A DNA stretch of 63,868 bases, filler included, from Octopus bimaculoides (taxonomy: Eukaryota): NCBI RefSeq assembly GCF_001194135.2. It is 6 parts of 5 records of this genome, joined end to end, with 100 filler letters (N's around TTAATTAATTAA, not from the genome) between each part and the next. Parts side by side here need not be neighbours in the genome. Positions count along the whole stretch, not along the records: positions 1 to 10,311 come from NC_068982.1; positions 10,412 to 21,975 come from NC_068982.1; positions 22,076 to 28,388 come from NC_068998.1; positions 28,489 to 42,776 come from NC_069006.1; positions 42,877 to 62,659 come from NC_068987.1; positions 62,760 to 63,868 come from NC_068995.1. One strand, given 5' to 3'. Positions 3,967-63,373 of this stretch are shown in pieces. The notes under the pieces are model-generated. The model was not told the DNA's origin, did not search any database, and saw only the letters and a program-made list of their open reading frames with translations. The position numbers and the translations under genes are program-made. Positions within the stretch are counted from its first letter, which is position 1. The number at the start of each line of letters is the position of its first letter.

Positions 3967-4025
3967 ATAGCCGATGAGAATGCACCGTTGCTCTTTGCTC
4001 CGACATCCGAAACTCCGAGTATTAT
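3967..4025 (+). ncRNA. Minimal type I hammerhead ribozyme remnant (core U4C)
   Basis: atag-CCGATGA-gaatg..catcc-GAAA-ctc c gag-TA-ttat: stems I-III pair, GUA triplet, one core mutation. Confidence 0.6.
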
Positions 4026-5042
4026 AATGAAAATTTAATGTTTGTTCTAAATTATAACATATATAACTAATCCTCTATTTATCTAATATCGAGGTCTCAT
4101 CCTTTTGTTGTCACTGTTTATTATACATATATGCATAATATTATCTACATGTGTATATTTATGTACATATATACATCTATATATATGCTATTTGTGTGTA
4201 TGAATGTTCACTTGCGTGTTTAATTGCTAGTTGTGCTTTGCAGCTACTTATAAATCTCTTGGATTTTCATGATTTTCTGCATGACTGTCATATGTTTCTA
4301 TTCTTTACTTTGCTTAATAATTTCGGTCATCGGTAACATTTTAACCTCTTTTCTGTACATTTCTTTCCCTTTCTCGGTATCTTGTAGCTCACAACACTGG
4401 TCATAGTTTGCTCTCCTTTTGTAGCCCCAAATATTCAAAGCTGCCATAATGCGTAATGTTCTGAACTTCACTTTGTATGCAAAACTTTAAAAACACTTAA
4501 TCTTTGGCATTATTCATCTTAGTCTCTAGATTTATTCAAATGTTTTTCTCTTGCATGCGTGTCTCAAGTGGTCTCAACATAGTAATACTTTTAAATATCT
4601 TGCATTTTGGCGAAATTATTTATTGAAGAATTTTCAGATTTTTTTCGAATGAAAAATTTGAGACTTGTTTTCAAATCATTAATTTTGGAATTAACCATTG
4701 TTTAATTCAGATTAACTGATCTTCATCAATTATTCTATTGGTTCATCTGTGAATTTTTCTATTCTCTAGATTTCACTTGGTTCAACGTTTTCTCTGATTC
4801 TTAGACCACTGTCTCTACGAGATATAATTCCTAATTTCTGAAATAAGTCTCCTCCCTAGGAATCTAACTTCCGTTTTACCTGGTCAATAGATGTCCCTAA
4901 ATGCATGTTATAGAAAGTCTTCCTGAGTCTCAAGAGTGAATGTGTGTGCGTTTATAAAATAGTCCTGCCCATCTATATACGCATAGATGCGTACATATAT
5001 TTAAGGAATACGCATATATATATATATATATATATATATAAA

Positions 5043-5945
5043 GAGATAGTACTAGTTAGCTTTGACGTAGCTAGTCTCTACAAAAATACCCATTATATAT
5101 ATGGACGAGAAGCAGTAGAATTCTGGATAAACAAACAACCACAAAGAAATCAGGAGAGATTATCAAAAGAATGTATACTTGAAAGTTTACAGGTAGAAGT
5201 AGAAAACAAACACATTTTCTTTAATAATCAATACTATCTACAAATACAAGGCACTGCGATAGGGACGAAAGTAGTACCAACATTGACACACTAGTAATGG
5301 GATACCATGAAGAAAAAAAAATCTACACCTTATTCAGGGCTATTTTTGACCACCACTTTCAAACCTACTTTATCGGAAACTGGAAAACATTCTTAGATGA
5401 CTGCTTTATACTTTGGAACCGAAATAAGGAGGACCTTACAAAATTTCTTAAATTAATGAATAACATTCATGTATCAATCTAATTAACTATGAAAATGAAT
5501 GAAAAGAACTCCCCTTTTTGGATATTCTGACAGTTGAAGAAAATGAGACAGTTACTACTGACTTCTACTACACTAACAGAGACACACACCAATATTTAGA
5601 TTTTAGATCTTACCACCCTTCCTACACAAAAAGGAACATACCATTTAATATGGCAAGGCGCATATGCTCAATAGTCACTGTTAGAAGAGGAAAACGACTG
5701 GCAGAACTTAACATGTTCCTTCAGAAACAAAAATATCTCAACATGCCATGAAAAATCAAAGGAAATCTCAATCTATACCTTGCAGAGAAACACTCAGCCT
5801 AGGTGTGAAAATAAAGATACAACTACAAATATTACGTTTGTAGTTAGCCTAAATACTAGAAACCACAACATATACTATGAACGGGAACGTGAAACTCAGA
5901 GTAACGATTTTTTTGTTATATTTCTGCTGCTTTTAAATAAAGTAT
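5043..5945 (+). mobile_element. Penelope-like retroelement remnant (RT region plus 3' repeat piece)
   Basis: Frameshifted RT motifs VSFDVASLY, YLQIQGTAIGT, FLDDCFILW, DTHQYLDFRSYHP..KRNIPFNMARRI, typical of PLE RT/thumb; hammerhead remnant directly downstream. Confidence 0.9.
5875..5911 (+). ncRNA. Hammerhead remnant at PLE 3' end (core G deleted)
   Basis: CTATGA-acg ggaa cgt-GAAA-ctc a gag-TA-acgatttt; same family as the motif at 23054-23099. Confidence 0.65.
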
Positions 5946-6244
5946 ATATATATATATATATATATATNNNNNNNNNNNNNNNNNNNNNNNNNNNNNNNNN
6001 NNNNNNNNNNNNNNNNNNNNNNNNNNNNNNNNNNNNNNNNNNNNNNNNNNNNNNNNNNNNNNNNNNNNNNNNNNNNNNNNNNNNNNNNNNNNNNNNNNNN
6101 NNNNNNNNNNNNNNNNNNNNNNNNNNNNNNNNNNNNNNNNNNNNNNNNNNNNNNNNNNNNNNNNNNNNNNNNNNNNNNNNNNNNNNNNNNNNNNNNNNNN
6201 NNNNNNNNNNNNNNNNNNNNNNNNNNNNNNNNNNNNNNNNNNNN

Positions 6245-6440
6245 AGGATATGGCAAAAAATGAAATGACTGAAGACAGTGTCACATAAGACTAGTGCACT
6301 TTAAAGCACAAAAAATTCATTTTCATAACCAGAAAGCGAAATTAATCAAAATACGAATAAGCCTGTAAACTATCATCGTCCCAATTGTGAATTTGCTGCC
6401 AGGCCAAATGCTGGCATAACTAACCGTCTCCGCGTGCAAC
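6245..6440 (+). mobile_element. Probable RTE-type LINE 3' end fragment
   Basis: Decayed translation ending PNCEFAARPNAGITNRLR resembles the C-terminal C2H2-like motif of RTE ORFs. Confidence 0.4.
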
Positions 6441-6841
6441 TTGTAATCGGCATTATAAAACACCTTGAGAACTGAAATAACATATGCACAGCCATAAACA
6501 TAAATAAATGTCTTTCTACATATTAAAATGTAAATAATGTAAACAAATTAACAATATTGTAGGATTTTTCATCTGTGGATAGTGTTTTAGTGTGTGTATC
6601 GTTCGTGAGTTTGCATCTTGCCATTTTCCAGAGCAACAGCTCATTTACCTGAATGTTGCTATCTTTTTATTACTTCAGGTTCTCGTGACTTACTTGTGTT
6701 CTTACACAGTACTCATACATTGTTTTAGGCGGTAAATCTAATTATATGTATTTTCAATACCTGGACAAAACGTACACTGCCAATAATTAGTTTTAAATAA
6801 ATTAATCCAACACATACTGAATCCGTTTCTTGCTTTTTAGG

Positions 6842-8440
6842 TATGTGTTCATACATATGAAATTGCTGTTTCATTCACTGCCTTTACGATTTAGGATACA
6901 TTAAGCATGTCAATGGTCTCAATTGGAATATCATTTACTAAAATTAAAGTATGTATAACTGGCAAAACAAGTATTATTCGAACAAATTGAACGCAGATGT
7001 GTATCTATCTATTAATTGCCATTAACGTGGTCTAAGAGACGACCAAAATATGCCATTAGTAATCAAATCAAAGTATCATAAGTGTGGAAGCTAGATCACG
7101 TTGTCAAAAGTTTCCCGTCATTAACTACCTGCAATATCAACGAAGTTTTATATGTAGATATAAATATCTACACACTCAATGCCAATTACTTATACCTGGA
7201 TAACATTAACGATATCTTCACAAAGCTGAATGATACCACAATTGGAATAAAAGTAAATCATGGCACATCTATTTCAGCTATTCAGGATTTCCTTTATTGA
7301 TAATATACTTTTAATACTAAGTTATCAGTGATATACTTTAACAACTTTGTCGGTTGAGCATTGAAGGAAAAGGGAGCTACAATTGATCACGTTTCATACA
7401 ATAATGCTATGAAGCAAGGATTTATGAACGTAGATTCTCCATATGGCTTCGAATTAATTGGAAGGAACATTTAGAGCATGGAATGGTCTGCTTTAACATT
7501 AACTCTTATTAAATTTTATGTAACTAGCCACACATGTAAAAATCCTGAGAATAATATGTTTCTTGTACAACATCTTTTCATTTTGAAGCAGAACGGAAAG
7601 ATTTCTGAAACCCTGGAAATCTTGGTGTAATACTACCATGGTACGCTTCGTCCGTGAGGTGGCTCAAAGAAGGATGGTTAATTTAGAATGTATGAAATTA
7701 CGAATTTCACCTAAAAGCATACACGCAATCATTTCCATCAATCGATTGTAGCTTCTGAAAACAAGGGAGGAAAAGTTCGTGCCTACAATATTCCTAAAAT
7801 GTTCATGTCAGTAAATTCGAATGTCCGAAGGAGCAAACCATTATGTTATATTACATCTGATGGTATATACCCTGTACATTATTTGCAGACGGCTCTTAAA
7901 AATTCTACTGACATAGTCAAATATAGCTTGGAGAATATTTTGAAAGGCAATGAAGATATTTGAAAGCTTTGATATTTTTATTATTTGTGAAGTCGGAAAA
8001 AGAATGAATATGCCAGAAAGTGTCGTTCTTTCATAAATTTGGTGCTTACAATTCTCTGTAAACAAAACAAAACAAAAATCATTATGTTAGTCATCCGTTC
8101 ATTTTCTGAATGAACGCATCAGCAAGAAGTATTGCACCATGGATATTATTATTGCAGAAAGTAAATTCGCTGAAAAAGATAACAAAACAAAAAAAGTAAA
8201 CGTGCAATGAAGTCGAGAACATACTATTCATTGGAGTTTTTTGGCGATTTATCACAAGTACTTGAAGCAATATCAGAACATTTGCAAAATGTATTATCAA
8301 CAAAAAGTATTCCTCTTTGTACTGAAAATGATATGAACTATCATAAAATGAAGCCGTTTATCGTAAGACCATTCAGTGTGAATATTTCCAGAGAAAATAC
8401 ACAATTCTTACTCGGACATTTAGTGAAGAAAGCATGGTGA
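6842..8440 (+). pseudogene. Long decayed single-frame ORF (about 530 codons), unknown family
   Basis: One frame, which contains track ORFs 7082-7300 and 8207-8440, has about 19 internal stops over 533 codons and protein-like text; no SINEs or microsatellites inside. Confidence 0.5.
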
Positions 8441-10055
8441 TATATGTGGTGGCTTGGCATATTATATTCAGGCGGGATGTTAAAAATGTTGATTGTCAAC
8501 TACGCTAAATATCATATACACTATGGAAATATACACACACTCTCATGTCAATACACGTGATTGTTTGCCAATACAAACACGCATATGTATGTATTTATGT
8601 ATATATGTATATATGCATAGATGAGTGAGCACATACTTACACACAAGCACACACAAGTATATGCAGCATATTTAAGCATATCAGAGTTTGTGTAAGTGAT
8701 GAACTTCTAGGTCTGGACCTCTCTTTGTACATAAGCTCATATATAAAATACGGTTGTATATGTACATACATATATACTTTTATACACTTGTATTAATGGC
8801 CACACACAAATCTATACATATTGGCGAAATATATGCGTACATCGGTGAATATGTATGTACACGCAAAGACGCACATATACTCATACATTAAAAATATCGT
8901 ACTCTAGCGATCTAGAATTATTACTAGGCTATAGTATTAGTCTGACAACAAATATGTTCTAATACTGGCATGCAGCAAATCGAAGAAAAGACTTTAATAT
9001 AGATTTTAGTTCAGGCTGATTTATTATTGGTATCCAATGAGAAGAATAATGTAGTATGGAATTGCATTAGTATTTGTTACATGTCCTGTTCTGAATACAT
9101 AGTCCTTATAGCAAATGTCGTTGTTAATCATGATGACTAGCAAGATATTTGAGTAAATGACATATACTGCAGTGTTGTATATTTACGGACAATAAAACAG
9201 CGAGCTGTCAGAATGGTTAGAAAGTCGGAAAATGCCTAGCATATTTGTTTTGATTCATTAAAACTTTCATCCTTTCGATGGATTTCAGTATCAGTCAAAG
9301 AGACTGGGGCGATGGTATCCATACTTTAAAAATCTCTGGCCGTGGTGCTTAAATGAGAAACCATATACTTACGGACAATTAGTTTAAAATTTAGAGTTGA
9401 AAGATTCTTCAATCCTTGCGCTTATGTTTGAAACCTGGAATTGGTAGTTTCTCTAGAACCATGGACAAAATGACTTGTATATGTTCCGACTGTTTACATT
9501 CTGAATCAAAATCCTGTCAAGGTCAACGTCGACTTTTATCCAACCACGATCAAGAAAAATAACATTAAGTACAGGTATTAATAAAATATCCTGTTCCTTC
9601 CTCCAAATTTGAGATCTTGTGTCTAAGAGAAAGAAATCAATATTTACCCTTCAATCGGATCTCTTCTATTCCCGATCATTATTGTGTCATACGCCAGGAT
9701 GTATACATCATGCACTGTAATATATAATGCACTGTTATACATATGCACTGTTATTTCTAAATTAGTGGTTGTGATGCAGTCTGACACAGAACATTATAAT
9801 TATTGGTTTGCTGGATAAAAGCTGTCTTTCGTAAGAACAACAACAAAAACAACGATATTTATGGTTATTGATGTACATCGAATATAGATATATGACGTTG
9901 CCAGAATTATTTCTTTGTAGCCTGGTGATTGTGCATAAGCTCAATCAAACCTAAAACGAGGAACAAAGGACATTTGTTTCCAAGTATTACCGTTTACACA
10001 ACTACATAGCGGTGCTGTCATTGGCTTTAATATCGATTTCTAAGACGATCGCACA

Positions 10056-10085
10056 ATGATTCAGATTTTAGGAGAACTGCTTCTG
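10056..10085 (+). CDS. Possible first coding exon of the + strand gene (MIQILGELLL)
   Basis: ATG with A at -3, in-frame stop 15 nt upstream, donor CTG|GTATCA in phase 0 matching one reading of exon 11611. Short and speculative. Confidence 0.25.
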
Positions 10086-10125
10086 GTATCATTTCTCCAG
10101 AAACAGCAGCAATCTGAACTCGGAA

Positions 10126-10201
<76 letters not shown>

Positions 10202-10224
10202 CATCTATCTATCTATCTATCTCT
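10126..10224. repeat. (ATCT)n microsatellite
   Basis: Read directly. Confidence 0.95.
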
Positions 10225-10355
10225 ACTGACGGACGTGCTGTCACATCGGCTGCAGAAGTAAACGTTTTTTTTTTACCTTATATTGCTCACATTTATTAAA
10301 ACGTTTTTCATNNNNNNNNNNNNNNNNNNNNNNNNNNNNNNNNNNNNNNNNNNNN

Positions 10356-10367
10356 TTAATTAATTAA
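10356..10367. other. Assembly linker TTAATTAATTAA inside an N gap (also 22020, 28433, 42821, 62704)
   Basis: Identical 12-mer centred in N runs five times; it gives stops in all six frames. Confidence 0.95.
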
Positions 10368-10411
10368 NNNNNNNNNNNNNNNNNNNNNNNNNNNNNNNNN
10401 NNNNNNNNNNN

Positions 10412-10696
10412 AGGACCAGTGAAACTGGAGAATATTTGGGCCTCAACATAACCAACGAAGAGGTTCCCGTAGTTGGGGCCCATTCTCGTCCCCATGGCCA
10501 CTCCCGATTTTTGCTGGTAGATATCTCCCGCGAACGAGAAGCAGTTGAGAGATAGGACAAGTTCGGCCAGACGAATGAGTGTGGAGGTGTCGGGTTGTGG
10601 GTTGGGGCGTTGGTCTAGAAAAAACTTCAGGGCACGCAGCCCCTCGTCGTGGGGGATCACTGTATAGAGGCTCTGGATGTCTAGAGTGAAGAGAAG
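10412..10696 (-). mobile_element. Penelope-like RT fragment with uninterrupted frame
   Basis: LLFTLDIQSLYTVIPHDEGLRALKFFL..LIRLAELVLSLNCFSF..YQQKSGVAMGTRMGPNYGNLFVGYVE; cut by a gap; more GC-rich than flanks. Confidence 0.92.
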
Positions 10697-10699
10697 CTT

Positions 10700-10945
10700 A
10701 TATATATATACGTGCGTGTGTGTGTTTCATTGTGTATGTGTTTGTCTCCGACCTCCAGCTTGACAATCGCTGTTGATATGGTTGCGTCACCGTAACTTAG
10801 CGGTTCAGCAAAAGTGACCGGTAGAATAAGTACCATGCTTAAAACGTAAGTTCTGAGGCCGATCCATTCGGCTAAAGCTCTTTAAGACGGTACCCCAGCA
10901 TGGCCGCGGTCTAATGACTGAAACAAATAAAAGATAAAAGACAAA
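10700..10945 (+). mobile_element. SINE family C, 3' half
   Basis: cgtaacttagcggttcagcaaaag..gaataagtac..ccagcatggccgc..actgaaaca as in the full copies. Confidence 0.75.
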
Positions 10946-11360
10946 AAGAAATTAAAGATAATTCCCTGCATCTTTTCTATGAGGGTTTCATTAACTGCTA
11001 GAAATATCAGCTAAATTCCATTACTTACACCCTAGCATCCTCAAAAAGACAGGACACGTTGAACAACGTAATCCTAGATATGCAATGCCTGAGGGAAAAA
11101 AATAGAACTGACATCGTGCGAACGCCTATGCTCACATTTATAAAAATATATATGAATATATACATCTACTTATTCCATAATGTTTTAACCTTGTTTACTA
11201 TAATACTCTTTTCCAATATTTTTAGATTCTAACTCTTAATAATTATATTAATACCGTTAATGTAGGGATTAGTTTGCAGATTTCGTCTCTTTATATATAT
11301 TTTTATTTCTCATGTTTATGTTTATTCCTTGAATGATTTTAGGTATTTTCTGAGGGATTT

Positions 11361-11475
11361 GACCTGAAGAGTGACTGATTTTGGGAGTAAAACCATTTCC
11401 CCGTTCTAATAAACTCGGATAGAATTTGCTTATGATTTCATATAGTCCTATTTCAGCCATGAAACGCGCGTAGTC
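11361..11475 (+). ncRNA. Minimal hammerhead ribozyme with long stem II
   Basis: gac-CTGAAGA-gtgactga...tcagccat-GAAA-CGCGCG-TA-gtc: intact core, palindromic stem III ACGCGCGT, GUA triplet. Confidence 0.7.
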
Positions 11476-11610
11476 TATGTACTAGCACTAACTTTTACAT
11501 TTATACTTACTTCCATACTATATATTATCGTATTAATTTTTACTGTCCAATTTATAAATTTGACTTAAAATTTTTTGTTTAATTAATATTTCTATGATTT
11601 ATTTATACAG

Positions 11611-11683
11611 CTACATTTAAGGCGGAAGAACCTAGACAAAGAGCAGTGTCCTTGGCTTTTGCAGATCATCCTACATCCGTGAG
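11611..11683 (+). CDS. Internal exon of predicted gene (3' end 11678 or 11683; frame ambiguous)
   Basis: Acceptor tttatttatacag; donors CC|GTGAGG or AG|GT. Reads TFKAEEPRQRAVSLAFADHPTSVR or LHLRRKNLDKEQCPWLLQIILHP; both join the next exon in frame. Confidence 0.55.
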
Positions 11684-11798
11684 GTNNNNNNNNNNNNNNN
11701 NNNNNNNNNNNNNNNNNNNNNNNNNNNNNNNNNNNNNNNNNNNNNNNNNNNNNNNNNNNNNNNNNNNNNNNNNNNNNNNNNNNNNNNNNNNNNNNNNN

Positions 11799-11841
<43 letters not shown>

Positions 11842-11979
11842 TGAATACTTACAAAATGTGAGGGTCAACCGATATATCAATTCGGAATGCAAAAAAAAAA
11901 AGCCCCAAAGTCCTGTGGATATCTACTAGTGCCTTCCATCAAAATAGTGCGATAAATATAATAAAGAAGTTTTTTAAAG

Positions 11980-12076
11980 AACTGAAATTTCAAAGGATCT
12001 GCATTTTTTTGTCGAGACCCGAAATGAATTCGCTTACAAGTTCCACCTTGCAAAATTTTTCTTGGAGGTCCTGTGT
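11980..12076 (+). CDS. Internal exon (TEISKDLHFFVETRNEFAYKFHLAKFFLEVLC)
   Basis: Strong donor TGT|GTGAGT in phase 0 and open frame; acceptor is a weak AAG (11980 or 11996). Confidence 0.6.
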
Positions 12077-12894
12077 GTGAGTAATAGACAGAGAGAGGTA
12101 GTATATGTGGAGTAGATATTTAGATAAAATATAGGTGAAATAGAAAGAGTGCTTTGTATAAATAATTAATGCAAACAAACGTTGTCTGTATTAGTTATAC
12201 TACTAAAACATTTTTATAGATACATTTGTATATGTTGATATGCAGGTCGTTCTCGTCCTAATGAGTTAATTCACTTCTAATTATCACTCGTTATTCGAGA
12301 ACTCATAAAGCGACTGGTATTTTCTCATAGTAGTATAATAATCGTGACTTTGGTTCCAATCAAAAATTTTCAGCCAATTTCTTTTTTGAAAACGAACAAA
12401 AGAAACACAAACGAATTATTATGATTAGCAGCTAATTAAAAATCTACTCACATTTAAGCAAAAAAGGAAGAAAGAAATGAAAAATTTGAAAATAAAATGA
12501 GAACTATTTTTTTTCACTAAAACTTTAATTAACGTTCATAGTCCATTTTGTATTCGATTTTCAACACATGGGGTGATTACTATTATTATTATCATCATTA
12601 TTATTATTATTATTATTANNNNNNNNNNNNNNNNNNNNNNNNNNNNNNNNNNNNNNNNNNNNNNNNNNNNNNNNNNNNNNNNNNNNNNNNNNNNNNNNNN
12701 NNNNNNNNNNNNNNNNNNNNNNNNNNNNNNNNNNNNNNNNNNNNNNNNNNNNNNNNNNNNNNNNNNNNNNNNNNNNNNNNNNNNNNNNNNNNNNNNNNNN
12801 NNNNNNNNNNNNNNNNNNNNNNNNNNNNNNNNNNNNNNNNNNNNNNNNNNNNNNNNNNNNNNNNNNNNNNNNNNNNNNNNNNNNNNNNNNNNNN

Positions 12895-12934
<40 letters not shown>

Positions 12935-12945
12935 ACTTGTTTCAG

Positions 12946-13016
12946 GAACGCTTAGAGAGTTCTCTGCTTGCAACATTGTTTTCTTCGCTTCATGAATTTG
13001 CTGATGACAAGCGAAG
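12946..13016 (+). CDS. Internal exon (ERLESSLLATLFSSLHEFADDKR)
   Basis: Acceptor ttacttgtttcag, donor AAG|GTAACC, open, phase 0 to 2. Confidence 0.7.
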
Positions 13017-14460
13017 GTAACCTTTCTATTTCGTTCATCATTTGGGTTTTGTGACTCTAAATTTTTATTGACATTTTCTCTGTTCAAAAGCCTCTTGAAG
13101 TCCCATGGATATAAAGTTACGAAATAAAAGGCCCTCTTCTTCCTTTTGTTTTTCATTATCATTTTCGCAAGTTATCGAATAATTCCCTCTTTAGTTAAGC
13201 TCATTGTTGTGCGTTTCGCGTTGATCCACTACAAAAACTTAAACATGTCAGCTTTTTGAATGACTTTTCTTTTGTTTTTGTATTTTTCTTTAATGCTTTA
13301 TGATATCTTCAGATTTCTTTCAAATTCTTCAAATTTGCAATTACGTTGGGACAATGATTTTGCCATACACCTTTCACGGCCTTCCTCTAAATACTGTTCC
13401 ATACAAAACAAATGAGTTGAGATAAGTGGATTCTTTCTGGGTGTCCTGGAATGAATTAACGAAAGATATTCTATACTCATTACCGATATTTTCTTTTTTG
13501 CAATCGTTATGTAATTACACAACTGCGATATGTTTGGAGAAATATAAAAGCTTGCATTATGGGTGAAAGTTTGTTAACATCGAAAATCGCTTGTCCAGTA
13601 CGTATTGTTGTCTGCCACCTTATGCGTAAATGGAGGATATTAAAGAGTTCAAGGCTTGCACGAAAGTAGTTAGTGTGTGTGTGTGGGGGGGGTATGTAAA
13701 CTAAATCTTGGCGAAATCGCAATTGTAGCAACCGAAAGAGAGTGATTAAAGATGATAAGCACGAAGCTGTCTGAAGTTAACAGGAGCTGACCTTTGCTTA
13801 AAGGTATTGTGAGTATATATTTTAAAACCGAACTTAGGTTACTGAAATTATATTCGACTTGTCTATATTCGGCTCTGATTTATCTAGTATAATGATGAAT
13901 TTTTGACAGGTTAAACAAATGGATTTTTAGCGCAAAATCCGAGAACAATGGAAACGAACGTGAACACTCATATTTCGGTCCTTAATCACAAATTTCTTCT
14001 TTATCGTTCACTCACGCATACTTCATTACATTGATTATATCTAAAACACTCAAGCTCTTCCAAATCTGTGCAAGAGTTTCAACCTTCTTTCTTATTCTTG
14101 GCTTTATGACGAGTATAAAATGTTTCTCGTAAAAAGCAGGTCTTAACAGATTAAATAAACCCCTGATCCATAGGTTGAAGAAGTGAGATTGATTTTACCG
14201 GTAAAAAAAAGAAAAAGTAATTTTAACATTTGTATGATGATTTTGCTGAGATACTGGTCGTTCGGTTGCATTAACGAAAATTAAAAGCACGTAGCAAGAA
14301 TTTTTTTTCATTTATAATATTGTTTTATCTCAAGAATGAAAGGATGAGAAAACCAATCCCCAAAAAGTGAGAACTATTATCCAAACCTTTTTTTTTTCCT
14401 TATGATTATGAGAATACTTTTCATGGCAATTTTTTGAGCCTCTGGATTTTCTGATCTATA

Positions 14461-14676
14461 CGAGGAGGTGCTGAAAAGTTCTTGGTTTCAGGGTATCGCG
14501 AAGGGCTTGGTTGGAAGCCCAATCTTCCGAATTCTTTTACAGGGCTTAGAAAAACTGAAGGACCGCTGTAATAAGTGTGTGAATCTGAGAGGGGGAATAT
14601 GTTGAATAAAATCATGATTAACTGATCCTTCTGTATTTTCTTTTACCCAAAAGCTAGGAACTTTTTAGCACCCCCT
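14461..14676 (+). mobile_element. Mariner-derived non-autonomous element
   Basis: TIRs cgaggaggtgctgaaaagttc / ggaactttttagcaccccc; retains transposase C-terminus GLEKLKDRCNKCVNLRG.YVE*. Confidence 0.85.
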
Positions 14677-15549
14677 AACACAAAAAAGACAGTTAACTTC
14701 ATCTTAGACATTTATTGTTTGTAACATGGCGTCACCGACCAGGTTGCAGTTTCGGGTGACGAAAATTTTGACACTCTTTTACGAACAATAAATGTTTTAA
14801 AGAAATTTAACGTTCTTTATGTGTTTCTGAATAGCTAACTTGCGAATTCCACGCTGCAATCGTTTTAGTTTCAATACACGATCTTACGTAATCAAAATAC
14901 TTGTCTTACAAGTACATCTCTGTGATGTTTTACCGTTTTCTTTTTAATTATAATTATAGTTTTGGCCACTGCACACCATTCATTTGTTGTTAAAACATTT
15001 GTCAACTTGTAAAACGTAGAAAGTTTTCTGTCGCACCCCGTATAATTTTCCTCATCAGTAATTAAATGAGTAAAATATTTTACCATGCTATGATCTGCGC
15101 TGCTGCTTCACTTTCTAAATTTATGACATGCCAGCCTGCTCTCTTCTTACAGCGTTTAAAACATTCACTGCCTGCGGCAAGTTTCTTTGTTATCTTCCCT
15201 TTCATCATTTAGCATTGCAAAAATGGACCAGGTTTTTCTACAACTGGCAGCGCAGATAACAAGAACGTTTAATCTTTGTGTTTGATCACTAATCCATACT
15301 GTTAAAATCTCTATTTGAGGAACGATGCTATCTTCTTTATTTTGAAGCCAAGTACATTACATGGAATGCGCATTCTTAACGCGAATCAAATATTTCTCTT
15401 TCTCGTTGAAAACTGTACAAACGATGAAAAGCTCAAAGAATATCTATCAGTGATGTTTTTACGGTATTTCCGGTATAATGTTGTCTTGTAATTTTCATAC
15501 TTTTGTTCAAAAGTTCTGGTTCTCCTTCTTCCTTTATTTGATGCTTTAG

Positions 15550-15646
15550 TCAGTTTATCGTTGTTTCTTTTGAGAATGTTGGAAAAAATATGGGTGCCAA
15601 AATATCTGAAGAAAAGATGAAGAAGCGAAAAGCAAAGGAAAGCATT
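15550..15646 (+). CDS. Internal exon (SQFIVVSFENVGKNMGAKISEEKMKKRKAKESI)
   Basis: Pyrimidine-rich acceptor ..gatgctttag, donor ATT|GTAAGA, phase 2 to 0, joins 13016 in frame. Confidence 0.7.
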
Positions 15647-16523
15647 GTAAGATGCATCGATGGCGTCCGCTTGCTGGTAACACTATGTAACACGACTCTT
15701 GTCCTTGGGTACAAGCTGTTATTTCCTATTTGCTTACCCTAGAAAGTATGAAAAATGACTAATATTACCTTCAAACTTTGCTTTTGTTACATTTATTAAA
15801 GCCCTAAAAAATTCCTCTTAACACATGGTTATGGTGCTTGCCCACGACTCCTACACATGATCAGAGAGGCTTTAATTGTCAACCATAAGGAAGATGCTCA
15901 ATTGGTCAAGGTCAAGCAACTGACAAGCAAATCTGTGATATTGAGCAGAATATTTGCTATAACGATATTTCTGCTTCTGTAACTCAGCGCTAAATCTGTC
16001 TGAAATGTAATGGAACATAGGTCAGTTTCATAACATGGATGCCCAGCTCACAAAAGCAAAGTTTGAAGAGAACAGTAATCATTTCCTTTGATTTCTAGAT
16101 AGAAGCAAATAGGAAATAACACTTACTGACCAAAGACCAAAAAAGTAATAATAATAATAATTTTGTTACACAGTGTAATTGAACTTCGCGTTAAATTAAA
16201 GTAAATAAAATAGTGACAATCGAGAAAGGCCAGGGATTACCAACGTTTGCCAGCGTAACTTGACGTTCAGCTCAATTGCCTACAGTATTCATCCGCCCGG
16301 ATGCCATTTTGGAGCAACACACATTGAGGTATTCGTAAATTTCAAACGAAATTACATGAATAAGGTTTTGTCTTTTAATTTTTGCCACCGAAAATTCTTT
16401 TAAAAATATAAACTCGTTAACTGGAAGTCCGGAAAACCTGAACTACTTGTAATAAAGTTAGTCACTCGTAGTCCTAGAAAGACAGTTCTGCAATTTTTTG
16501 CTGAACAAACTGCAGAAATGATT

Positions 16524-16937: not shown

Positions 16938-16939
16938 TT

Positions 16940-19748: not shown

Positions 19749-19787
<39 letters not shown>
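19492..19787 (-). mobile_element. SINE family C, 3' half, ending in (CA)n and a gap
   Basis: Reverse complement of the tail of 22515-22897. Confidence 0.85.
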
Positions 19788-21430: not shown

Positions 21431-21681
21431 GTGAGTCCAATTGAATAGAAAAGTCAATAACTAAAGACAAAAGTATTAGAAAATAAAAGGCATAAAAATA
21501 AATATAGAAAGAAGGTAACTTTAAAAACCCAGTGAGCGTTTAGCACAAGACGAGATCCGAAATGTGCATAGAATGAGTGTGAAAGAATAAAGGAGTCATC
21601 TGGATATCTCTTCCAGTTATTTTCTATGTATAGGGAGAATGGGTTACGGTAAAGATTGTTTCTAGGTGCCTCATGACTAGG

Positions 21682-22460: not shown

Positions 22461-22514
22461 TTAATGATAGATGAGTTTTTTTGTTTTTTTTTGGAGGAAC
22501 AAATTAAATTGTAT

Positions 22515-22897
22515 GAGTGGCTGTGTGGTAAGTAGCTTGCTTACCAACCACATGGTTCCGAGTTCAGTCCCATTGCGTGGCACATTGAGCAAGTGTCTTC
22601 TACTATAGCCTCGGGGCGACCAAAGCCTTGTGAGTGAATTTGGTAGACGGAAATTGAAAGAAGCCCGTCGTATATATGTATATATATATATATGTGTGTG
22701 TGTCTGTGTTTGTCCCCCCAACATCGCTTGAGAACCAATGTTGGTGTGCTTACGTCCTCATAACTTAGCGGTTCGGCAAAAGAGTTCCGATAGAATAAGT
22801 ACTAGGCTTACAAAGAATAAGTCCTGGGGTCGATTTGCTCAACTAAATGCGGTGCTCCAGCATGGCCGCAGTCAAATGACTGAAACAAGTAAAAGAG
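22515..22897 (+). mobile_element. Full-length SINE family C with internal microsatellite
   Basis: tRNA-like head (tggctgtgtgg..ggttccgagttcagtccc), (TA)(TG) core, conserved tail ..actgaaacaagtaaaagag. Confidence 0.9.
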
Positions 22898-22919
22898 TAG
22901 AGAGAGTATGTATATATGC

Positions 22920-22956: not shown

Positions 22957-23053
22957 AGAGTAAGCACATAAATGTGAAACAAGGTGGAAAAATAGTAATC
23001 AAATACCAGAGGTAGGGTAATATGCTTTATTAAAAAGCAGCAAAAATATCACA

Positions 23054-23099
23054 AAAACTGTTAATCAGAGTTTCACGTTCCCATTCGTCAGACAGTTTT
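23054..23099 (-). ncRNA. Minimal hammerhead ribozyme, intact core
   Basis: aaaactgt-CTGACGA-atg ggaa cgt-GAAA-ctctgat-TA-acagtttt: 8 bp stem I, GNRA-capped stem II, stem III degenerate. Confidence 0.8.
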
Positions 23100-23114
23100 G
23101 TTTAGAGTCTAAAC

Positions 23115-23160
23115 AAAGCTGTCGAACGAATGGGAATGTGAAATTCTGATTAACAGTTTT
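23115..23160 (+). ncRNA. Mirror-copy hammerhead with mutated core
   Basis: aaagctgt-CGAACGA-atgggaatgt-GAAA-ttctgat-TA-acagtttt. Confidence 0.7.
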
Positions 23161-23194
23161 TGTGATATTTTTGCTGCTTTTTAATAAAGTATGT

Positions 23195-25737: not shown

Positions 25738-25795
25738 GTCATACTGAGGACGGTAAAGTGGGATTACATCCCTAAACCAGAAATCGATCTATGGC
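25738..25795 (+). ncRNA. Minimal hammerhead ribozyme, intact core
   Basis: gtcata-CTGAGGA-cggt..gggat tac atccc..acca-GAAA-TCGA-TC-tatggc: 6 bp stem I, palindrome ATCGAT, AUC triplet. Confidence 0.8.
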
Positions 25796-26031: not shown

Positions 26032-26064
<33 letters not shown>

Positions 26065-26065
26065 T

Positions 26066-26226
26066 AGGCACAAGAGTGGCTGTGTGGTAAGTAGCTTGTT
26101 TATCAACCACATGGTTCTGGGTTTAGTCCCACTGTGTGGCACCTTGGGCAAGTGTCTTCTACTATAGCCTCGAGCCAACCAAATCCTTGTGAGTGGATTT
26201 GGTAGATGGAAACTGAAAGAAGCCTG

Positions 26227-26286
<60 letters not shown>

Positions 26287-26498
26287 TTGTTTGTGTCTGT
26301 GTTTGTTCCTCCACCATTGCTTGACAACCAATGCTGGTGTGTTTATGTCCCCGTAACTTAGCGGTTTGGCAAAAGAGACCAATAGAATAAGTACTAGGCT
26401 TACAAAGAATAAGTCCTGGGGTCGATTGGTTCAACTAAATGCGGTGCTCCAGCATGGCCGCAGTCAAATGATTGAAACAAGTAAAAGAATAAAAGAAT
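26066..26498 (+). mobile_element. Full-length SINE family C
   Basis: Collinear with 22515-22897. Confidence 0.9.
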
Positions 26499-27413
26499 AT
26501 TTACACATTTAACTGTGTATGTGTATACAGCACTATCCCAGACCTGTAAGCAGTACTGTAAAGATCTCTTCTACTATAGGCACAAGGCCAGCAATTGTGG
26601 CAGGACGGGAATAGTCAATTACATCAACACCAGTATTTGACTGGTACTTATTTTATTGACCCTGAAGGAAAATATTTCACTATGGCAGAATTTGAACTCA
26701 GAACATAAAGATTGATGAAATACTGTTAAGCATTTTGTTCAGTCAGTTTGTCACCTCAAGCAATACTGTAATGGTGATGTCTACAGACAAACATTAGCAG
26801 TTAAGGTTGAAGAGGATCCTTTATCTTTGAGATATTATTATTATTATTATTATTTTTGTTATGTCGTGAGGAAACAGCAAGAAATCATTGGAAATTGTGA
26901 AACCTAATATTTGGAGTTACAAAGTTCTCTTTTCCTTTGAATGATTTTGACATTGACAAAAGGGGTGTTGCAGTGCCACCTTCTGTGCCTCCAAGGCTGG
27001 TAGAAAAAAAGAGAGGAAGATATCTCCAAAACAGAAACAAGTTCTGAATGCTCACAATGCAGTGGGCGCCACTAAGGAGCACCCAAGGGTCAATGGTTGG
27101 GGTGTGGCAGTACAGGATTAAATTTGGCGATGGATTAAGTCCATCACTCAACAACAACATCAGTTTCATCCCAACAAGATTCCAAACGTTTTCCTTCTAC
27201 CAAATTCCAAACACAAAATTGGGCCGATGCAGAGCTATTGTGGAAACCGCCGGCCCAAGGTACCACGCAGTGATACTGAACCCAAAACCACATAATTCCA
27301 AAGTTGTTGCGTTATACGACAAGTCTGTTTCTATGCTACTTTGTTATCTATTGTACCTGTTTCTGATTGGAGGATATTTAAAAAATTGAAATTGATTTAA
27401 TTTATTAAGTCAG

Positions 27414-32045: not shown

Positions 32046-32837
32046 TTTTATAGATTCCTGCAACGAAGTTACTTTGGAAAAGATTTCCTCCCTCCCTCAC
32101 AGGAATGGCACGGATGAACAATCAAAAGGGATTTGCTGTTTCATCTTGTGGTTTTTGATATCCAGTTAATTCGTTAAAAAAAATATCTCTACAAAGACGA
32201 CATGGATTTAGAAAAGCTCCTAATGAATTTGGTTCATGAAATCAATCAGTTTTAGTCTTGACACGAGGTCAGAGATGATGAGAGAGGGTCTCAAGTCGAT
32301 TTAATCAACGTCAACCCTTGACGGATATTATGTTTTATTGGCTCTGAAATGTTGAAAGTCAATCACAGATGGAAAATATCATCTGTAAATTATTTCATAA
32401 AACAGAAACAACCAACAGAAAATTAAAAATACGAATTATAGCGTCCGTTTCCAAAACCCTTTTTTATTCCGTTTCCATTGTCTTCGCTTCTACTTAGGTT
32501 TTATTTATTCATTTTTTGGTCTTATCACACTTTTGCTATACGTGTTTTACCTCTATTTGTTTTTTTTAAATTCATCTCTTTCCACATTGAGTTTGTTGTA
32601 AGAACTACCGTTTTCATTTCTTTTATTATTTTTTTGTTAAATTCTATATTTTATAGATTTATGAATTTATATTTTTTTCATATGTTGTGTGTGTGTGGAC
32701 AGGAAACGAGATAGAGAGACAGGTAGGTACTACATAGGTACTACATATATCATACTTTGACACTGTATGGACTGAGATCCCATCGACAGGCCACTCATAT
32801 TTAGAAATAAAGTGGCCTCTCTCTAGCAAGAGAGTTT

Positions 32838-32899
32838 TAGGGTCTGAAGAAACGCCGTAAAGCTAAGCGCTTTATGGACATGAAACCCAGGTAACCCTA
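32838..32899 (+). ncRNA. Minimal hammerhead ribozyme, intact core
   Basis: tagggt-CTGAAGA-aacg ccgtaaagc taagc gctttatgg acat-GAAA-cccagg-TA-acccta: 6 bp stem I, 9 bp upper stem II, GUA triplet. Confidence 0.88.
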
Positions 32900-33789
32900 T
32901 CAACCGGCCATATCTATCTTTATCTAAATAGCCTACTGCTCTATAACTTCGTTAGAGAGAGTACAGTCTTACAGTGGTATCGAAGTCAGAACCACACTCT
33001 TATGAACATAACTCGTTGCCTCCTCGCCCATTCCTGTTCTGTGCTTTGGACGTTCCTGAATGAATCACAAAATAATTCTTTTGTCCGTTCTGTTTTTTTT
33101 TTGTTTTTTTTTGCAGGCCTCCTCTCCTCCCACAAAATGTTCGCCCAGAAACAATTAGTTGGATTGATGTTTATGTGTGTCTGTCTCTCATTGATTACTC
33201 ATGCTTACCCATGCGGAACGAATCCGCTCCAAGTCGTTCAAAAAATAGCCGATGCCAAAGGTAAGCAGTACTTTTCTCATTCACTCATAAACATTGTCGA
33301 TCTTTTTTTTGTTTTGTTTTTTATTGATCTGCTTCTGAAGCTGTTAATCGTTAATAGTTCCGTCTTTAAAGAATACATTTACATATAATGAATATTATGT
33401 AGAGATGAGGCAGCCAGCTGGTAGAGTCATTGGCACGCCGGGCAAAATGCTTAACGGCATTTTGTCGGTCTGAGTTCAAATTCCGCTGAGGTCGACTGTG
33501 TCTTTCAGCCTTTCGGTAAAAGTAGAAGTAATTAATGTCTTACAGCTGCTTCTGGGACATCCCAGGTGATGGGTCAACATCTCATGACCCGAGATACTCG
33601 TCCTGCCTTGGTTTTTGTTGTCCTTATTCCTCTAATATATACCTGCTAACTTGGAAGCCTACAACAGATCCTAGCTCCAGCCTCAGCTGTGAACTTGGAA
33701 CCTAATGGATGACCAATTATAGAATCTATGCCATGTACTTATTGGTTTAGATCAACAGTGAGCTAAGCCCTTCATATTCTTCATACAAA

Positions 33790-34250
33790 CTTTTAAGGCT
33801 TATGCATTTACAATCCAAGAACAGGAGATTGCTACAAAATACCTAGAAAAACATAAGAGCTCCAAGATGCAACCGAAAATGTAGATTATGTCATATTTTG
33901 TGACAGACATTACACATACGATTAGCAGCCGCCCCAAAATGCCATCAAGGTACCACTTCCATTTGCAACGTGACGCTAAAACAATATACAATGTCATTCG
34001 GAAAAAAGACCGTCCTGGAATAAATATAGAGAATCTCCCTGTCAGTGAATACATTAAAAAATATGAACACAAGGAGTACTGGTGGAATATTCCCATCAGA
34101 AACACCTATCAAATGTAAACATAATAGGCTGGAAAGACGAGTAAAACTAGAGACCAGCTGCCCTGTGAATGTCTGTTTGAAAATCAAAGCGAAATAAAAA
34201 AGATAATTTTGAACGACTGTTTCGAAACCTCCAGCGGATATGCGCCTTCG
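33790..34250 (+). mobile_element. R2/R4-type RLE non-LTR fragment (zinc knuckle and endonuclease region)
   Basis: CRLCHI..DITHTISS.PKM.SRY..AKTIYNVIRKKD..EYWWNIPIR.P.KCKHNR, with frameshifts. Confidence 0.8.
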
Positions 34251-34257
34251 GTCATTT

Positions 34258-34297
34258 AAGTCTGATGAATCGCCTAATGCGAAACCAATGGTCACTT
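34258..34297 (+). ncRNA. Minimal hammerhead ribozyme, intact core, weak stem II
   Basis: aagt-CTGATGA-atcgcctaatgc-GAAA-cca a tgg-TC-actt: canonical GUC triplet. Confidence 0.72.
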
Positions 34298-34595
34298 TGA
34301 CCAGCCATAACATTTAACTTCCTAATGGATAACCAAATGAGATAGATGAGTTAAAGAAAGCAGATACGTATATATTTGACAGTCCAAATGTCGTTATCAT
34401 ACACACGCCAGGACCGTTAAAATAAAGTCCCTATCAAATAGCGTGGCCAGTGGTATCGATTAACCCCACACCCTTCAAACTTTTGGCCTTGTGCCTAAAT
34501 CGAAAATCATTTCCAAAGCAGCAGTTTGTTTCTAGTACCGAACAATTACAATTCAGAAATACTGATTGTTGTGTGTGTGTGTTGTCTTCTTTTAG

Positions 34596-34791
34596 GTGTG
34601 ACCTACAAACAATTACTGTCCAACTTAGAATTCCGAAGACAAGTAAACTATCTGTATAAGAAATATGCCAGATGTGTTGGAATTGTTGAAACAGGTACTT
34701 ACAAGCGTTCAATGGAGCCCCAGTTGTTGCAAAGCAGTGAGAGTTCGATGATGGATCCAAGTAATTTCCAAGATCACGGAGACATATACCG
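34596..34791 (+). CDS. Penultimate exon (GVTYKQLLSNLEFRRQVNYLYKKY..FQDHGDIYR)
   Basis: Acceptor gttgtcttcttttag, 65 open codons, donor CCG|GTAGGT in phase 2; the frame stops immediately past the donor. Confidence 0.7.
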
Positions 34792-34876
34792 GTAGGTGTA
34801 GTCGTTGCTGTTATTAATGTTATTGAACACCATCAAGGGGGGAAAGTAAATGAAACAAGCCAAAATCAATTAAATA

Positions 34877-35170
34877 TTGTTGTTGTTTGTTCCTTCTCGA
34901 GCCATGCCTGGCTCATAAGGGCCGGCTTCCCGGTTCCATTAGCGTATAGGTTCCCCACCTGGACGGGACGCCCGTCTGTAGCAGGTGAGCTGTTAGATGC
35001 AGGAGGAAAGAGTGAGAGAAAGTTGTGGTGAAGGAGTCAGCAGAAGTTCCCCATTACCTTCTGAAAGAACCGCGTGGAGCTTAAGTTTGTCGCTCATAAA
35101 CACACACATCGCCCGGTCTGAGATTCGAACCCACAAGTCCGCTACTCTAACCACTAGGCCATGTGCCTCC
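34877..35170 (-). mobile_element. tRNA-derived SINE, family A variant
   Basis: Shares head and ccacaactttctctcactc core with 36780-37169 but has a different 3' part; (AAC)n tail. Confidence 0.85.
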
Positions 35171-35887
35171 AAATATCGTTATACAGTCAATAAAGCCCCA
35201 AATCCAGCCATTTTCACTTGTCGTCCTTATATGAATGAGGTTTCCACAAGTCAATACTGAATCGGTCTAGCTTTAAAGATTTCCGACTTGTGCCTACAAA
35301 TGTTTATCGACGAACTCAACGTTGTAAAAGTTGTGTTACTACATCGAACGTGATACAGTGGAAAGGAACGACCTAAGAATAAGTGTCTGGTTTCTTTGCA
35401 TGGCAAGATGTCTGCAAGACATAAAATGGACCGTTCAAATATCGATGGAAGTCAACGTATTCTGCAACTGGTTTCGTCTGTTTAGTCATAGTTGAAATCC
35501 TAATATTTCTCTCAATTTGGAAGGCAGCTTATTACAGGGAAGGATGGCTTCCACGTTTTTCAATAAAGTGGGAAAAGAAATGAAAGCCGCCTAAAAAAAA
35601 AAACCGAATCACTACCTCCCAGTCCTCTGATCAAACTGTCGGGCCAAGTAATGTTAATGAATTCTTTAACCAACAAGAATCATTTGTAGTCATTAAATCT
35701 AAACTAATTGGCGATTAGCTTTTTACTTATAGTCGTACCAAATTCGATCAGAGGGAACGTAGCCTTTTACATCTTTATTTTTCTATTCTAGAAAATAGAA
35801 ATAAGATAAAGACAACCAGTTGGGGGTTAGATATCAGAAAACAATTTTTCCAAGACGTTTACGTTTATTTCCATCTTATTTTTGCAG

Positions 35888-35978
35888 ACGATCTGACAGT
35901 TTTTACAAGAGAGCTTCATTACTGAAACGTCCTCAAGACACAAACAATCCGGGACAACCTTTCTACTTCTACAAATGA
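35888..35978 (+). CDS. Terminal coding exon (RSDSFYKRASLLKRPQDTNNPGQPFYFYK*)
   Basis: Very strong acceptor tttatttccatcttatttttgcag, phase 2 joins 34791, TGA at 35976-35978. Confidence 0.7.
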
Positions 35979-36230
35979 ACAAGTCGTACTTTTGCCTTAA
36001 ATCTAACTAGTTTCCAAGGTAACAAGCCGGATGATGATGTTACTTTCGGAGGAAGTTCATTAATCATCTTCCTGTCCAACAACCATTCTTCGTTTAACAA
36101 GAAACTTTAAAATCGATTTACAAAACAACTGTAGGACTTCTTTTGTCAGAAATTTCACTGAAAAATAAAAACCAAGTTGGAAAGTTATTGTCTTTATTTC
36201 TATTTTATTGTTTCTTGTATTTATTAAAAC

Positions 36231-36236
36231 AATAAA
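36231..36236 (+). terminator. Candidate polyadenylation signal AATAAA
   Basis: About 250 nt after the stop and followed by a T-rich tract; a second AATAAA lies at 36164. Confidence 0.4.
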
Positions 36237-62220: not shown

Positions 62221-62623
62221 ACCCACACCAAAGAAAGGAAGAAAGGAAGAGAGGAAGAAGGAGAAAGAGAAACCATCTTAGAAATGAAACAAACAAACAA
62301 ATAAAATCAAAGGATATAGACATAAATAAACAAACAAACAAACAAATGAACGAATAAAAAAAGGTTGAAGGGACTGCGCTGTTGTTTACATGCAAGGGTG
62401 TAGGAACACAAAGCAACAACAACAGCAACAACAACAACGAGAACAAAACTAAGATAACAATCTAATTTAAAAGTACATCTCAACTTCTCAAATTCCACAT
62501 TGGAAGGACAGGAGAACAGGGAAAGGGGAAAAAAGAGAGAGAAAAAGGAAAACAATCAGCTACCCTAATACCTTTAATATACATATATATGTGTATGTGT
62601 TTGTGTGTGAGTATATGTGTGTA

Positions 62624-62659
<36 letters not shown>

Positions 62660-62805
62660 NNNNNNNNNNNNNNNNNNNNNNNNNNNNNNNNNNNNNNNNN
62701 NNNTTAATTAATTAANNNNNNNNNNNNNNNNNNNNNNNNNNNNNNNNNNNNNNNNNNNNTATATATATACACACATATATATGTATATATGTATATATAT
62801 ATATT

Positions 62806-63135
62806 TAGTGAAGACGCAAGGGTCAGTGGTTAGAGCGTCGAGCTTACGACTGTGAGGTTGTGAGTTCGAATCTCGGATCGGGTTGAGTGTTGTGTTCTTG
62901 AGCAAGACACTTTATTTCACATTGCTCCAGTTCACTCAGCTATAGAAACGAATTGCAACATCACTGGTGCCAAGCTGTATTGGCCTTTGCCTTTCCCTTG
63001 GATAACTCTGAGAGGGGAGGCCGGTATGCATGGGCGACTGCTGGTCTTCCATAAATGACCTTGCCCGGACTTGTACCTGGAGGGTAACTTTCTAGGTGCA
63101 ATCTTATGGTCAATCATGACCAAAAGGCGTCTTAG
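62806..63135 (+). mobile_element. Full-length tRNA-derived SINE (family E)
   Basis: gggtcagtggttagagcg..gagttcgaatc head, ttgagcaagacactttatttcac core, unique tail. Confidence 0.85.
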
Positions 63136-63147
63136 CTCAGCATATAT

Positions 63148-63232
<85 letters not shown>

Positions 63233-63338
63233 AATACACACACAGGTAGATAGATATATATGTATAAACACACACACACAGAAACACATATTTTTTCCCC
63301 TCCGTCATCCTTTTCTATTGGACTTTCCCCTGTCTCCT

Positions 63339-63373
63339 GTTTCTGAAGAAGAACTTTGCTCGAAACGTAAAAC
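63339..63373 (+). ncRNA. Minimal hammerhead ribozyme, intact core
   Basis: gttt-CTGAAGA-a-gaac ttt gctc-GAAA-CG-TA-aaac: palindrome ACGT, GUA triplet, one mismatch in stem II. Confidence 0.72.

Follow-up and report, generated by a model that had tools for sequence, protein, structure and literature searches.

Does a 63,868-nt stretch of the Octopus bimaculoides genome (the whole of the DNA analysed here, hereafter the window) carry a population of hammerhead ribozymes, and from what kind of element would they derive? The original prediction listed ten minimal motifs. All ten were confirmed at their coordinates, and a descriptor search added one more on the plus strand at 59960-60022, giving eleven:

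3967-4025 (+): hammerhead-like motif in which C replaces U4; stem I has 4 bp, domain II spans 31 nt and helix III is palindromic
5875-5942 (+): hammerhead remnant with a shortened core, its stem I lacking the 5′ arm
11361-11475 (+): full-core hammerhead whose domain II reaches 90 nt; stem I has 3 bp, and the 8 nt of helix III form a perfect palindrome
23054-23099 (−): full-core hammerhead; stem I has 8 bp, a GGAA loop closes the 3-bp stem II, and helix III has lost its outer pair
23115-23160 (+): inverted copy of 23054(−) with two core changes
25738-25795 (+): full-core hammerhead whose stem I has 6 bp and whose 29-nt domain II is in two parts; the palindrome is perfect
32835-32950 (+): multi-copy unit of ~115 nt holding the full-core hammerhead 32838-32899, which has a 6-bp stem I, a 9-bp hairpin in domain II and a central mismatch in helix III
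34250-34302 (+): full-core hammerhead (34258); the 4-bp stem I gains a further 5 bp beyond a bulge, and stem II is weak
46721-46761 (−): full-core hammerhead; stem I has only 2 bp, and wobble pairs occur in helix III and where stem II begins
59960-60022 (+): full-core hammerhead, absent from the original prediction; stem I has 5 bp, domain II spans 33 nt and helix III is palindromic
63339-63373 (+): the hammerhead that best resembles the published consensus; stem I has 4 bp, an unpaired A precedes a G-C pair, and helix III reads ACGT

Seven of the ten predicted motifs (11361, 23054(−), 25738, 32838, 34258, 46721(−) and 63339) have the full core of CTGAnGA, GAAA and UH, the same count as had been claimed. 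In the complete set the core (CUGANGA, GAAA and UH, in type I order) is intact in 8/11 motifs and altered in three (3967, 5875 and 23115), corresponding to one full-core motif per 7.4 kb (8 in the 58,826 called bases of the window). No U3-A8 core variant was found within the window at strict settings. A helix I of at least 3 bp closes the core in nine of the eleven; it is absent at 5875 and reduced to 2 bp at 46721(−). Stem I pairs held across families in 33 of 36 cases, against 16 when permuted, in a comparison that is partly circular. Helix III, expected to be palindromic or nearly so, is fully self-complementary in eight motifs when wobbles are allowed and the centre is left free; in 23054, 23115 and 32838 a single pair of it is disrupted. 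The unpaired base after A9 and the G10.1-C11.1 pair are intact only at 63339, with a wobble at 46721(−) and other junctions elsewhere. The motifs can be called minimal in the sense of the minimal hammerhead ribozyme (min-HHR) class of Penelope-like elements (PLEs), but the word does not fit 11361, with its 90-nt domain II. Similarly, the variants had been said to share no sequence outside the core, whereas 5875, 23054(−) and 23115 form one family; the others stay apart, making about nine families.

The three-membered family, and thus 3 of the 11 motifs, is joined to one of two PLE reverse transcriptase (RT) remnants in the window:

4962-5875 (+): decayed PLE RT remnant with RT core, thumb and the start of the linker, and an internal (TA)n run
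10412-10702 (−): second PLE RT remnant, of a different family, with no hammerhead joined

The proteins nearest to the 4962-5875 remnant have a CX4CX2C linker plus a GIY-YIG domain at the C-terminus, of the Neptune/Nematis type. The remnant runs straight into the 5875 motif, which is followed by a 39-nt tail, an end at AATAAAG and then (TA)n. All three copies share this AATAAAG 3′ end and show 82-84% similarity over ~67 nt; the differences among them are unpaired decay. Because the 5875 copy has neither endonuclease nor 3′ UTR, and its family is the only one tied to an RT in the window, the fusion could be a chimera. No endonuclease remnant was found anywhere in the window, and a profile drawn only from Neptune/Nematis-type proteins found no PLE ORF upstream of the other eight motifs.

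Related PLE loci elsewhere gave a second line of evidence. Among 12 such loci with a complete C-terminus, six carry a sense-strand motif 69-197 nt past the ORF and none an antisense one (shuffle mean 0.008, 1000 shuffles); one of the six without a strict motif has a form with a 3-nt domain II. The non-consensus stem II junctions T.T, C.A and G.T are common to the PLE-linked loci (L001-L013 in this comparison) and to 59960, 25738 and 11361.

PLE hallmarks include inverted 5′-truncated copies and tails (PMC8557442), and two palindromes in the window contain hammerheads:

23022-23192 (both strands): head-to-head palindrome of two 85-nt arms, 93% complementary
46661-46824 (both strands): palindrome with one hammerhead as spacer; right arm from 46762

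The excess over shuffled sequence described below, the RT fusion, these palindromes and the motifs at 6/12 related loci uphold the prediction of PLE-type minimal hammerheads. It is very probable that the eleven motifs are fossil 3′ ends of about nine PLE families, each with a minimal type I hammerhead, and that most copies are cleavage-incompetent; for families other than that of 5875, the PLE link is one that we infer. The prediction of a diverse, multi-copy population mostly detached from any RT also held, given the multi-copy contigs and the lack of any endonuclease remnant in the window. Multi-copy status comes from contigs for three units, and from the three copies within the window for a fourth, the 5875 family.

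Reverse transcription has been reported to start internally, at the PLE tail (PMC11167929). In the window families it would begin within the tail, ~40-90 nt past the cleavage site, and even a strongly 5′-truncated insertion would then retain the hammerhead and lose the ORF, which would account for the many solitary motifs. According to the literature, the palindromic helix III brings two motifs of a tandem PLE transcript together, and the resulting cleavage is weak and perhaps aided by protein. The solitary window copies have no same-family partner on their own strand, and the palindromic copies would fold into long hairpins instead of pairing as dimers. Judged from sequence, cleavage from the window loci is unlikely, since most motifs show decay. 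In the published work (PMC11167929), insertion in vitro was unaffected by catalytic mutations, and none of the RNA reads had an end at the cleavage site.

The insertion edges lie close to the ribozyme. The centre of the 23022-23192 palindrome is 16 nt upstream of each core, and the arm start at 46762 is the third base past the predicted cleavage site; stem I of 46721(−) has only 2 bp because the inversion joint passes through it. The 46661-46850 stretch is present in contigs from runs of six organisms. Known edges fall within ~16 nt of the core in five copies (5875, 23054/23115, 32835, 34250 and 46762). This leads us to speculate, though we think it rather unlikely, that insertion 5′ ends and inversion joints were set by the ribozyme itself. 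If that were true, the genome would be a many-copy fossil record of how PLE hammerheads cut or stalled reverse transcription in vivo, including families with domain II grown to a 90-nt branched structure. We found no printed precedent for a 90-nt domain II (11361) or for copies with 5′ ends within ~16 nt of the core, and in these features the window goes beyond previous descriptions.

Some units (for example 32835-32950, 25738, 59960 and 11361) might instead be self-standing non-autonomous ribozyme retroposons mobilized by PLE proteins in trans, as monomeric relatives of non-LTR retrozymes that are still transcribed; taken together, we consider this improbable. The 32835-32950 unit is short, multi-copy and without an ORF, further copies occur in contigs of run X20 (RNA only by guess), and PLE-derived monomeric retrozyme derivatives have been described (bioRxiv 10.64898/2026.07.22.740005). 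However, the 5′ edge of the unit is known from the window copy only, so that other copies may continue into PLE sequence, and the canonical helix I with internal loop is absent, with 34250 as a possible exception. Moreover, head-to-tail arrays of 150-450 nt units overlap none of the motifs in the window. As tandem arrays include none of the motifs and Rfam gave no canonical type I match, retrozyme identity was rejected; of the two settings named in the original prediction, PLE terminal repeats and retrozymes, the former is the likely one.

The neighbourhood of 32838 and 34258 requires separate consideration. Contigs from four runs contain units 32835-32950 and 34250-34320 in multiple copies: in run X1, single-copy bins had a summed contig depth, which is not a copy number, of 11-20, compared with 5148 for the bin 32835-32889 and 573 for 34265-34319. 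Depth in this run went from 1229 (34155-34209) to 137 (34210-34264) and then to 573 over the 34258 motif, and run X3 was alike; the value of 137 is about what the last 15 bases of that bin, which are motif bases, account for. The 34258 motif adjoins a non-PLE remnant (33720-34256), presumably of Dong/R4 type from its motifs, which counts against a PLE origin for 34258; the motif's unit is separate from the remnant and of lower copy. Assignment of 34258 as the 3′ module of this non-LTR element was rejected because of the depth drop between RLE-coding sequence and motif, and 33720-34256 was rejected as a PLE endonuclease remnant, as it matches RT, zinc-finger and restriction-like proteins.

Putative host exons (33117-37424) lie on the same strand as 32838 and 34258, which are 1.4 kb apart; searches with the putative exon 36520-36654 gave no match. 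It is highly improbable that the two motifs were co-opted and, paired with each other as a mixed dimer, cut the host pre-mRNA. The helix III duplex between them is predicted at −4.0 kcal/mol and one cross stem I pairs at 5/5 positions, but the other pairs at only 2/5, 34258 gives no folded stem II, both motifs are ordinary repeat copies, and published dimers cleave weakly even when cognate.

In the shuffle check proposed with the original prediction, a strict full-core descriptor with domain II ≤40 nt gave 5 matches against a mean of 0.02 (maximum 1), and none of 100 local dinucleotide shuffles reached the real count. With domain II ≤130 nt, 5 matches compared with a mean of 0.28 (maximum 3, 200 shuffles), and the complemented control gave none. 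At a loose setting, which allowed one core mismatch but required a perfect palindrome, the excess lacked significance (3 matches against a mean of 0.98, with 17/200 shuffles reaching that count). An 11361-type match arose in 1/300 shuffles, with criteria fitted to 11361 itself. The descriptors were composed after the candidates were known, and no one setting catches all eleven motifs: the first was too strict (1 match), and those limited to a 40-nt domain II miss 11361. Candidates at 4623, 6269 and 42305, each with one core mismatch, were discarded as likely chance, with ~1.3 expected at that setting. Single-strand folding stability exceeded that of shuffles in only one of eight folded motifs (32838, z −3.0). 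That repeat-rich DNA produced the motifs by chance is scarcely credible: the tuned descriptors, the non-significant loose setting and the seven folded motifs no stabler than shuffles speak for it, but strict settings gave 4-5 matches against means of 0.02-0.28, reached in 0/100 and 0/200 shuffles, and the same descriptor picks out PLE 3′ flanks, so that chance is refuted for the whole set and could account for no more than a weak motif or two, for instance 3967.

Standard annotation had been expected to miss the motifs, and Rfam indeed returned no hammerhead family match in the window, only low-complexity matches below gathering scores. Family patterns found no matches in the viral contigs and prokaryote genomes searched. 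The class has been known since 2014 and the window motifs are mostly ordinary members of it; the main value of the fossil PLE 3′ ends is for annotation, with about nine new families in this Octopus bimaculoides window, all missed by Rfam. In so motif-dense a genome, the positions of insertion ends relative to the cleavage site could test in vivo PLE hammerhead cutting without bench work.

Among known systems, non-LTR retrozymes (PMC7229834; bioRxiv 10.64898/2026.07.22.740005) are likewise short, non-coding repeats of animals that bear type I hammerheads, but form 150-450 nt tandem arrays with canonical motifs, whereas the window copies are all solitary or inverted. Neptune/Nematis-clade PLEs (PMC8557442) are similar in the CX2-5CxxC linker RT and C-terminal GIY-YIG of the nearest proteins, and in their inverted 5′-truncated copies, tails and (TA)n neighbourhood. 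Unlike them, the window holds no full-length element, and the clade likeness comes from nearest proteins rather than a tree. The PLE variants of Lunse, Weinberg and Breaker (PMC5785218), as represented by the paper's title and a sentence in PMC6765202, share the short palindromic stem III, are thought to act as dimers and may already cover some window motifs.

The closest counterpart is the report of Cervera and de la Pena (2014, PMC4209133), in which solitary, variable, multi-family min-HHRs and opposite-strand pairs were already described. The alignment rows compared here include the molluscs Lottia and Crassostrea and, unlike the window, no cephalopod; domain II in these rows is a simple hairpin, whereas in five window motifs it is longer, at 29-90 nt. 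In that alignment, the unpaired base with the G10.1-C11.1 pair is a >80% consensus and not universal: Hydra has a U.U junction, and some forms lack the extra base. Most window motifs lack this consensus. The metazoan PLE pLTR min-HHRs agree with the window motifs in type I layout, a 3-6 bp helix I and a palindromic helix III, and the elements carrying them likewise comprise many unrelated families per genome, mostly as solitary truncated copies, with near opposite-strand pairs.

The original prediction listed ten hammerhead motifs, seven with a full core, and our analysis confirmed both counts: all ten are present (starting at 3967, 5875, 11361, 23054 on the minus strand, 23115, 25738, 32838, 34258, 46721 on the minus strand and 63339), and 7/10 carry the full core. 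Position 4 of the core is C at 3967, the 5875 core is shortened and lacks the stem I 5' arm, and 23115 has two changes in its core. A descriptor search of the window identified an additional full-core motif at 59960-60022, enlarging the observation by one. Domain II, the segment between the core halves CTGAnGA and GAAA, is 90 nt long in 11361. It should be noted that the window is AT-rich and microsatellite-laden, includes 5,042 N bases and is filled by several high-copy SINE-like families (22512-22912, 26052-26503, 54238-54596, 58667-58891, 59677-59924, 61466-61798 and others). The DNA is of animal type and its host likely an octopus: SINEs and microsatellites are arranged much as in octopus genomes, and of eight protein relatives checked for a retroelement remnant in the window, two are assigned by their sources to Octopus vulgaris and O. 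bimaculoides.

Shuffled controls had been proposed as a check, and the window counts exceed those in dinucleotide shuffles. A strict descriptor (full core, stem I of at least 4 bp, near-palindromic helix III, domain II ≤40 nt) gave 5 matches, against a mean of 0.02 and a maximum of 1 in 100 local dinucleotide shuffles; permitting one core mismatch at the same domain II limit gave 10 against 1.31. With domain II ≤130 nt, 5 matches were found, whereas 200 shuffles averaged 0.28 and a complemented control had none; one of five such settings was not significant (3 versus 0.98; 17/200 shuffles). The descriptors were composed after the candidates were known, and no single setting finds all eleven motifs: 34258 is recovered only by a descriptor that permits three unpaired bases ahead of stem II, and the frequency of 11361-type matches, 1/300 shuffles, was obtained with criteria fitted to 11361 itself. 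Only one of eight folded motifs was more stable than shuffles, as expected from an unstable helix III. No hammerhead family was among the matches of an Rfam search of the window.

The motifs had been interpreted as ribozymes of the kind found in Penelope-like elements (PLEs), mostly detached from any reverse transcriptase (RT). Two RT remnants bear on this reading:

4962-5875, decayed RT, running straight into the 5875 motif
10412-10702, minus strand, second RT remnant, with no motif attached

The 5875 motif is 82-84% alike to 23054(-) and 23115, and all three have a common 3' end, AATAAAG, 37-39 nt beyond the cleavage site. Searching metagenome contigs with the RT remnants' protein relatives yielded 20 related PLE loci, of which 12 were counted (match reaching the C-terminus, 3' flank of at least 200 nt) and eight, which stop short of the C-terminus, were omitted. 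A strict sense-strand motif lies 69-197 nt 3' of the ORF in 6/12 loci, compared with 0/12 on the antisense strand, and 1000 shuffles averaged 0.008; together with the RT fusion, this supports the interpretation. One further locus has a hammerhead-like motif with core halves 3 nt apart, ~230 nt behind the PLE ORF (L010:1862-1893). The stem II base junctions T.T, C.A and G.T are common to PLE-linked motifs and to 59960, 25738 and 11361, so these odd junctions are likely to be family traits rather than damage. A profile search, with a profile from Neptune/Nematis-type proteins only, detected no endonuclease remnant in the window, and the PLE origin of eight motifs is therefore one that we infer.

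Behind a Neptune/Nematis-type ORF, L004:1793-1838 has the U3-A8 core variant known from Schistosoma and Saccoglossus (PMC4209133). A third PLE RT has left a very short remnant around the catalytic DD motif at 21514-21654(-) (E 1.4e-4). Back to back with the 4962-5875 remnant is a purine-rich, coding-like stretch, 4300-4950(-), which matched none of the PLE proteins used in the analysis and could be the inverted 5' part of an element.

Two palindromes include motifs:

23022-23192, palindrome of two copies head to head, each core 16 nt downstream of the centre
46661-46824, palindrome with one motif as spacer, right arm beginning at the third base past the predicted cleavage site (46762)

The position of this right arm means that the joint substitutes for the stem I 5' arm. 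Between 32837 and 32890 one contig of sequencing run X3 switches strand, marking an inverted copy with its joint immediately 5' of stem I. Tails and inverted, 5'-truncated copies are characteristic of PLEs (PMC8557442). Five copies end close to the ribozyme core, a closeness that is biased because only motif-keeping copies are visible. A 338-nt palindrome at 1107-1444 (arms 75% alike) is centred ~11 nt upstream of one CTGAAGA at 1261(-) and another at 1283(+). GAAA is in place for neither, and the palindrome may be a far older pair of inverted PLE hammerheads.

Some of the motifs lie in multi-copy repeats. Contigs of four runs were aligned to 32780-34420, where summed contig depth is no copy number. 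By this measure 32835-32950 is a high-copy unit (depth, not copy number, of 5148 in run X1 versus 10.8 in single-copy bins), with one variant common to 72 contigs, and 34250-34320 a lower-copy unit (again depth, not copy number; 573 versus 19.7). Two X1 contigs show 0-1 differences from the window, so this run may be where the window itself comes from. Parts of 46661-46850 were matched in 22/24 of the runs listed; these span 12 studies and six coded organisms. One other element adjoins a motif:

33777-34242, plus strand, decayed C-terminus of a non-LTR element (RT/zinc-finger/restriction-like endonuclease), adjoining the 34258 motif, lacking internal segments that other copies have

We take this remnant to be, likely, of Dong/R4 type. 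That the 34258 motif is part of it is ruled out, since contig depth falls between the two, marking separate repeats. A putative host gene at 33117-37424(+) was read by eye as five exons (33117-33260, 34597-34694, 35888-36019, 36520-36654, 37332-37424) with a signal-peptide-like stretch at its start; a contig from a presumably RNA-derived run spans the first putative exon and shows no differences from it, and a search with one putative exon returned no homologue.

Minimal type I hammerheads (min-HHRs) of PLEs did not cleave singly when assayed, and dimers and trimers cleaved weakly (PMC4209133). In the anole PLE, reverse transcription begins at internal positions, which set the tail, and the hammerhead cut only in the presence of protein, was dispensable for insertion in vitro and left no read ends in RNA-seq (PMC11167929). 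Because reverse transcription probably begins just downstream of the hammerhead, this would be the element's most often copied part, and truncated insertions would give rise to solitary motifs. No window motif is matched by a partner of its family on the strand it occupies, palindromic copies would fold into long hairpins and, in several motifs, CG sites within the stems have changed from C to T; judged from these sequence features, most copies are likely dead.

Identity with non-LTR retrozymes, which require tandem arrays, was rejected because a tandem-repeat search of the window found none overlapping a motif. Among the matches listed for octopus or cephalopod hammerheads, we found no published report of PLE hammerheads in octopus; two cephalopod repeat papers never use 'ribozyme' or 'hammerhead', and the giant squid paper gives 235 Rfam hammerhead hits. 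The 90-nt domain II and the copy ends near the ribozyme core are worth following: the literature matches listed held nothing specific on long domain II or inversion joints at the ribozyme, and both may be covered in Lunse et al. (PMC5785218), in Repbase entries or in supplementary file S1 of PMC8557442. Cervera and de la Pena (PMC4209133) describe genomes with min-HHRs in the thousands, Xenopus tropicalis having roughly 9,000, in several unrelated families per genome, mostly as single copies, with pairs on opposite strands 100-700 bp apart; their alignment includes molluscs, with cephalopods absent among the rows examined. The PLE interpretation is supported, and the window motifs likely represent new families of a known kind, the PLE min-HHR.
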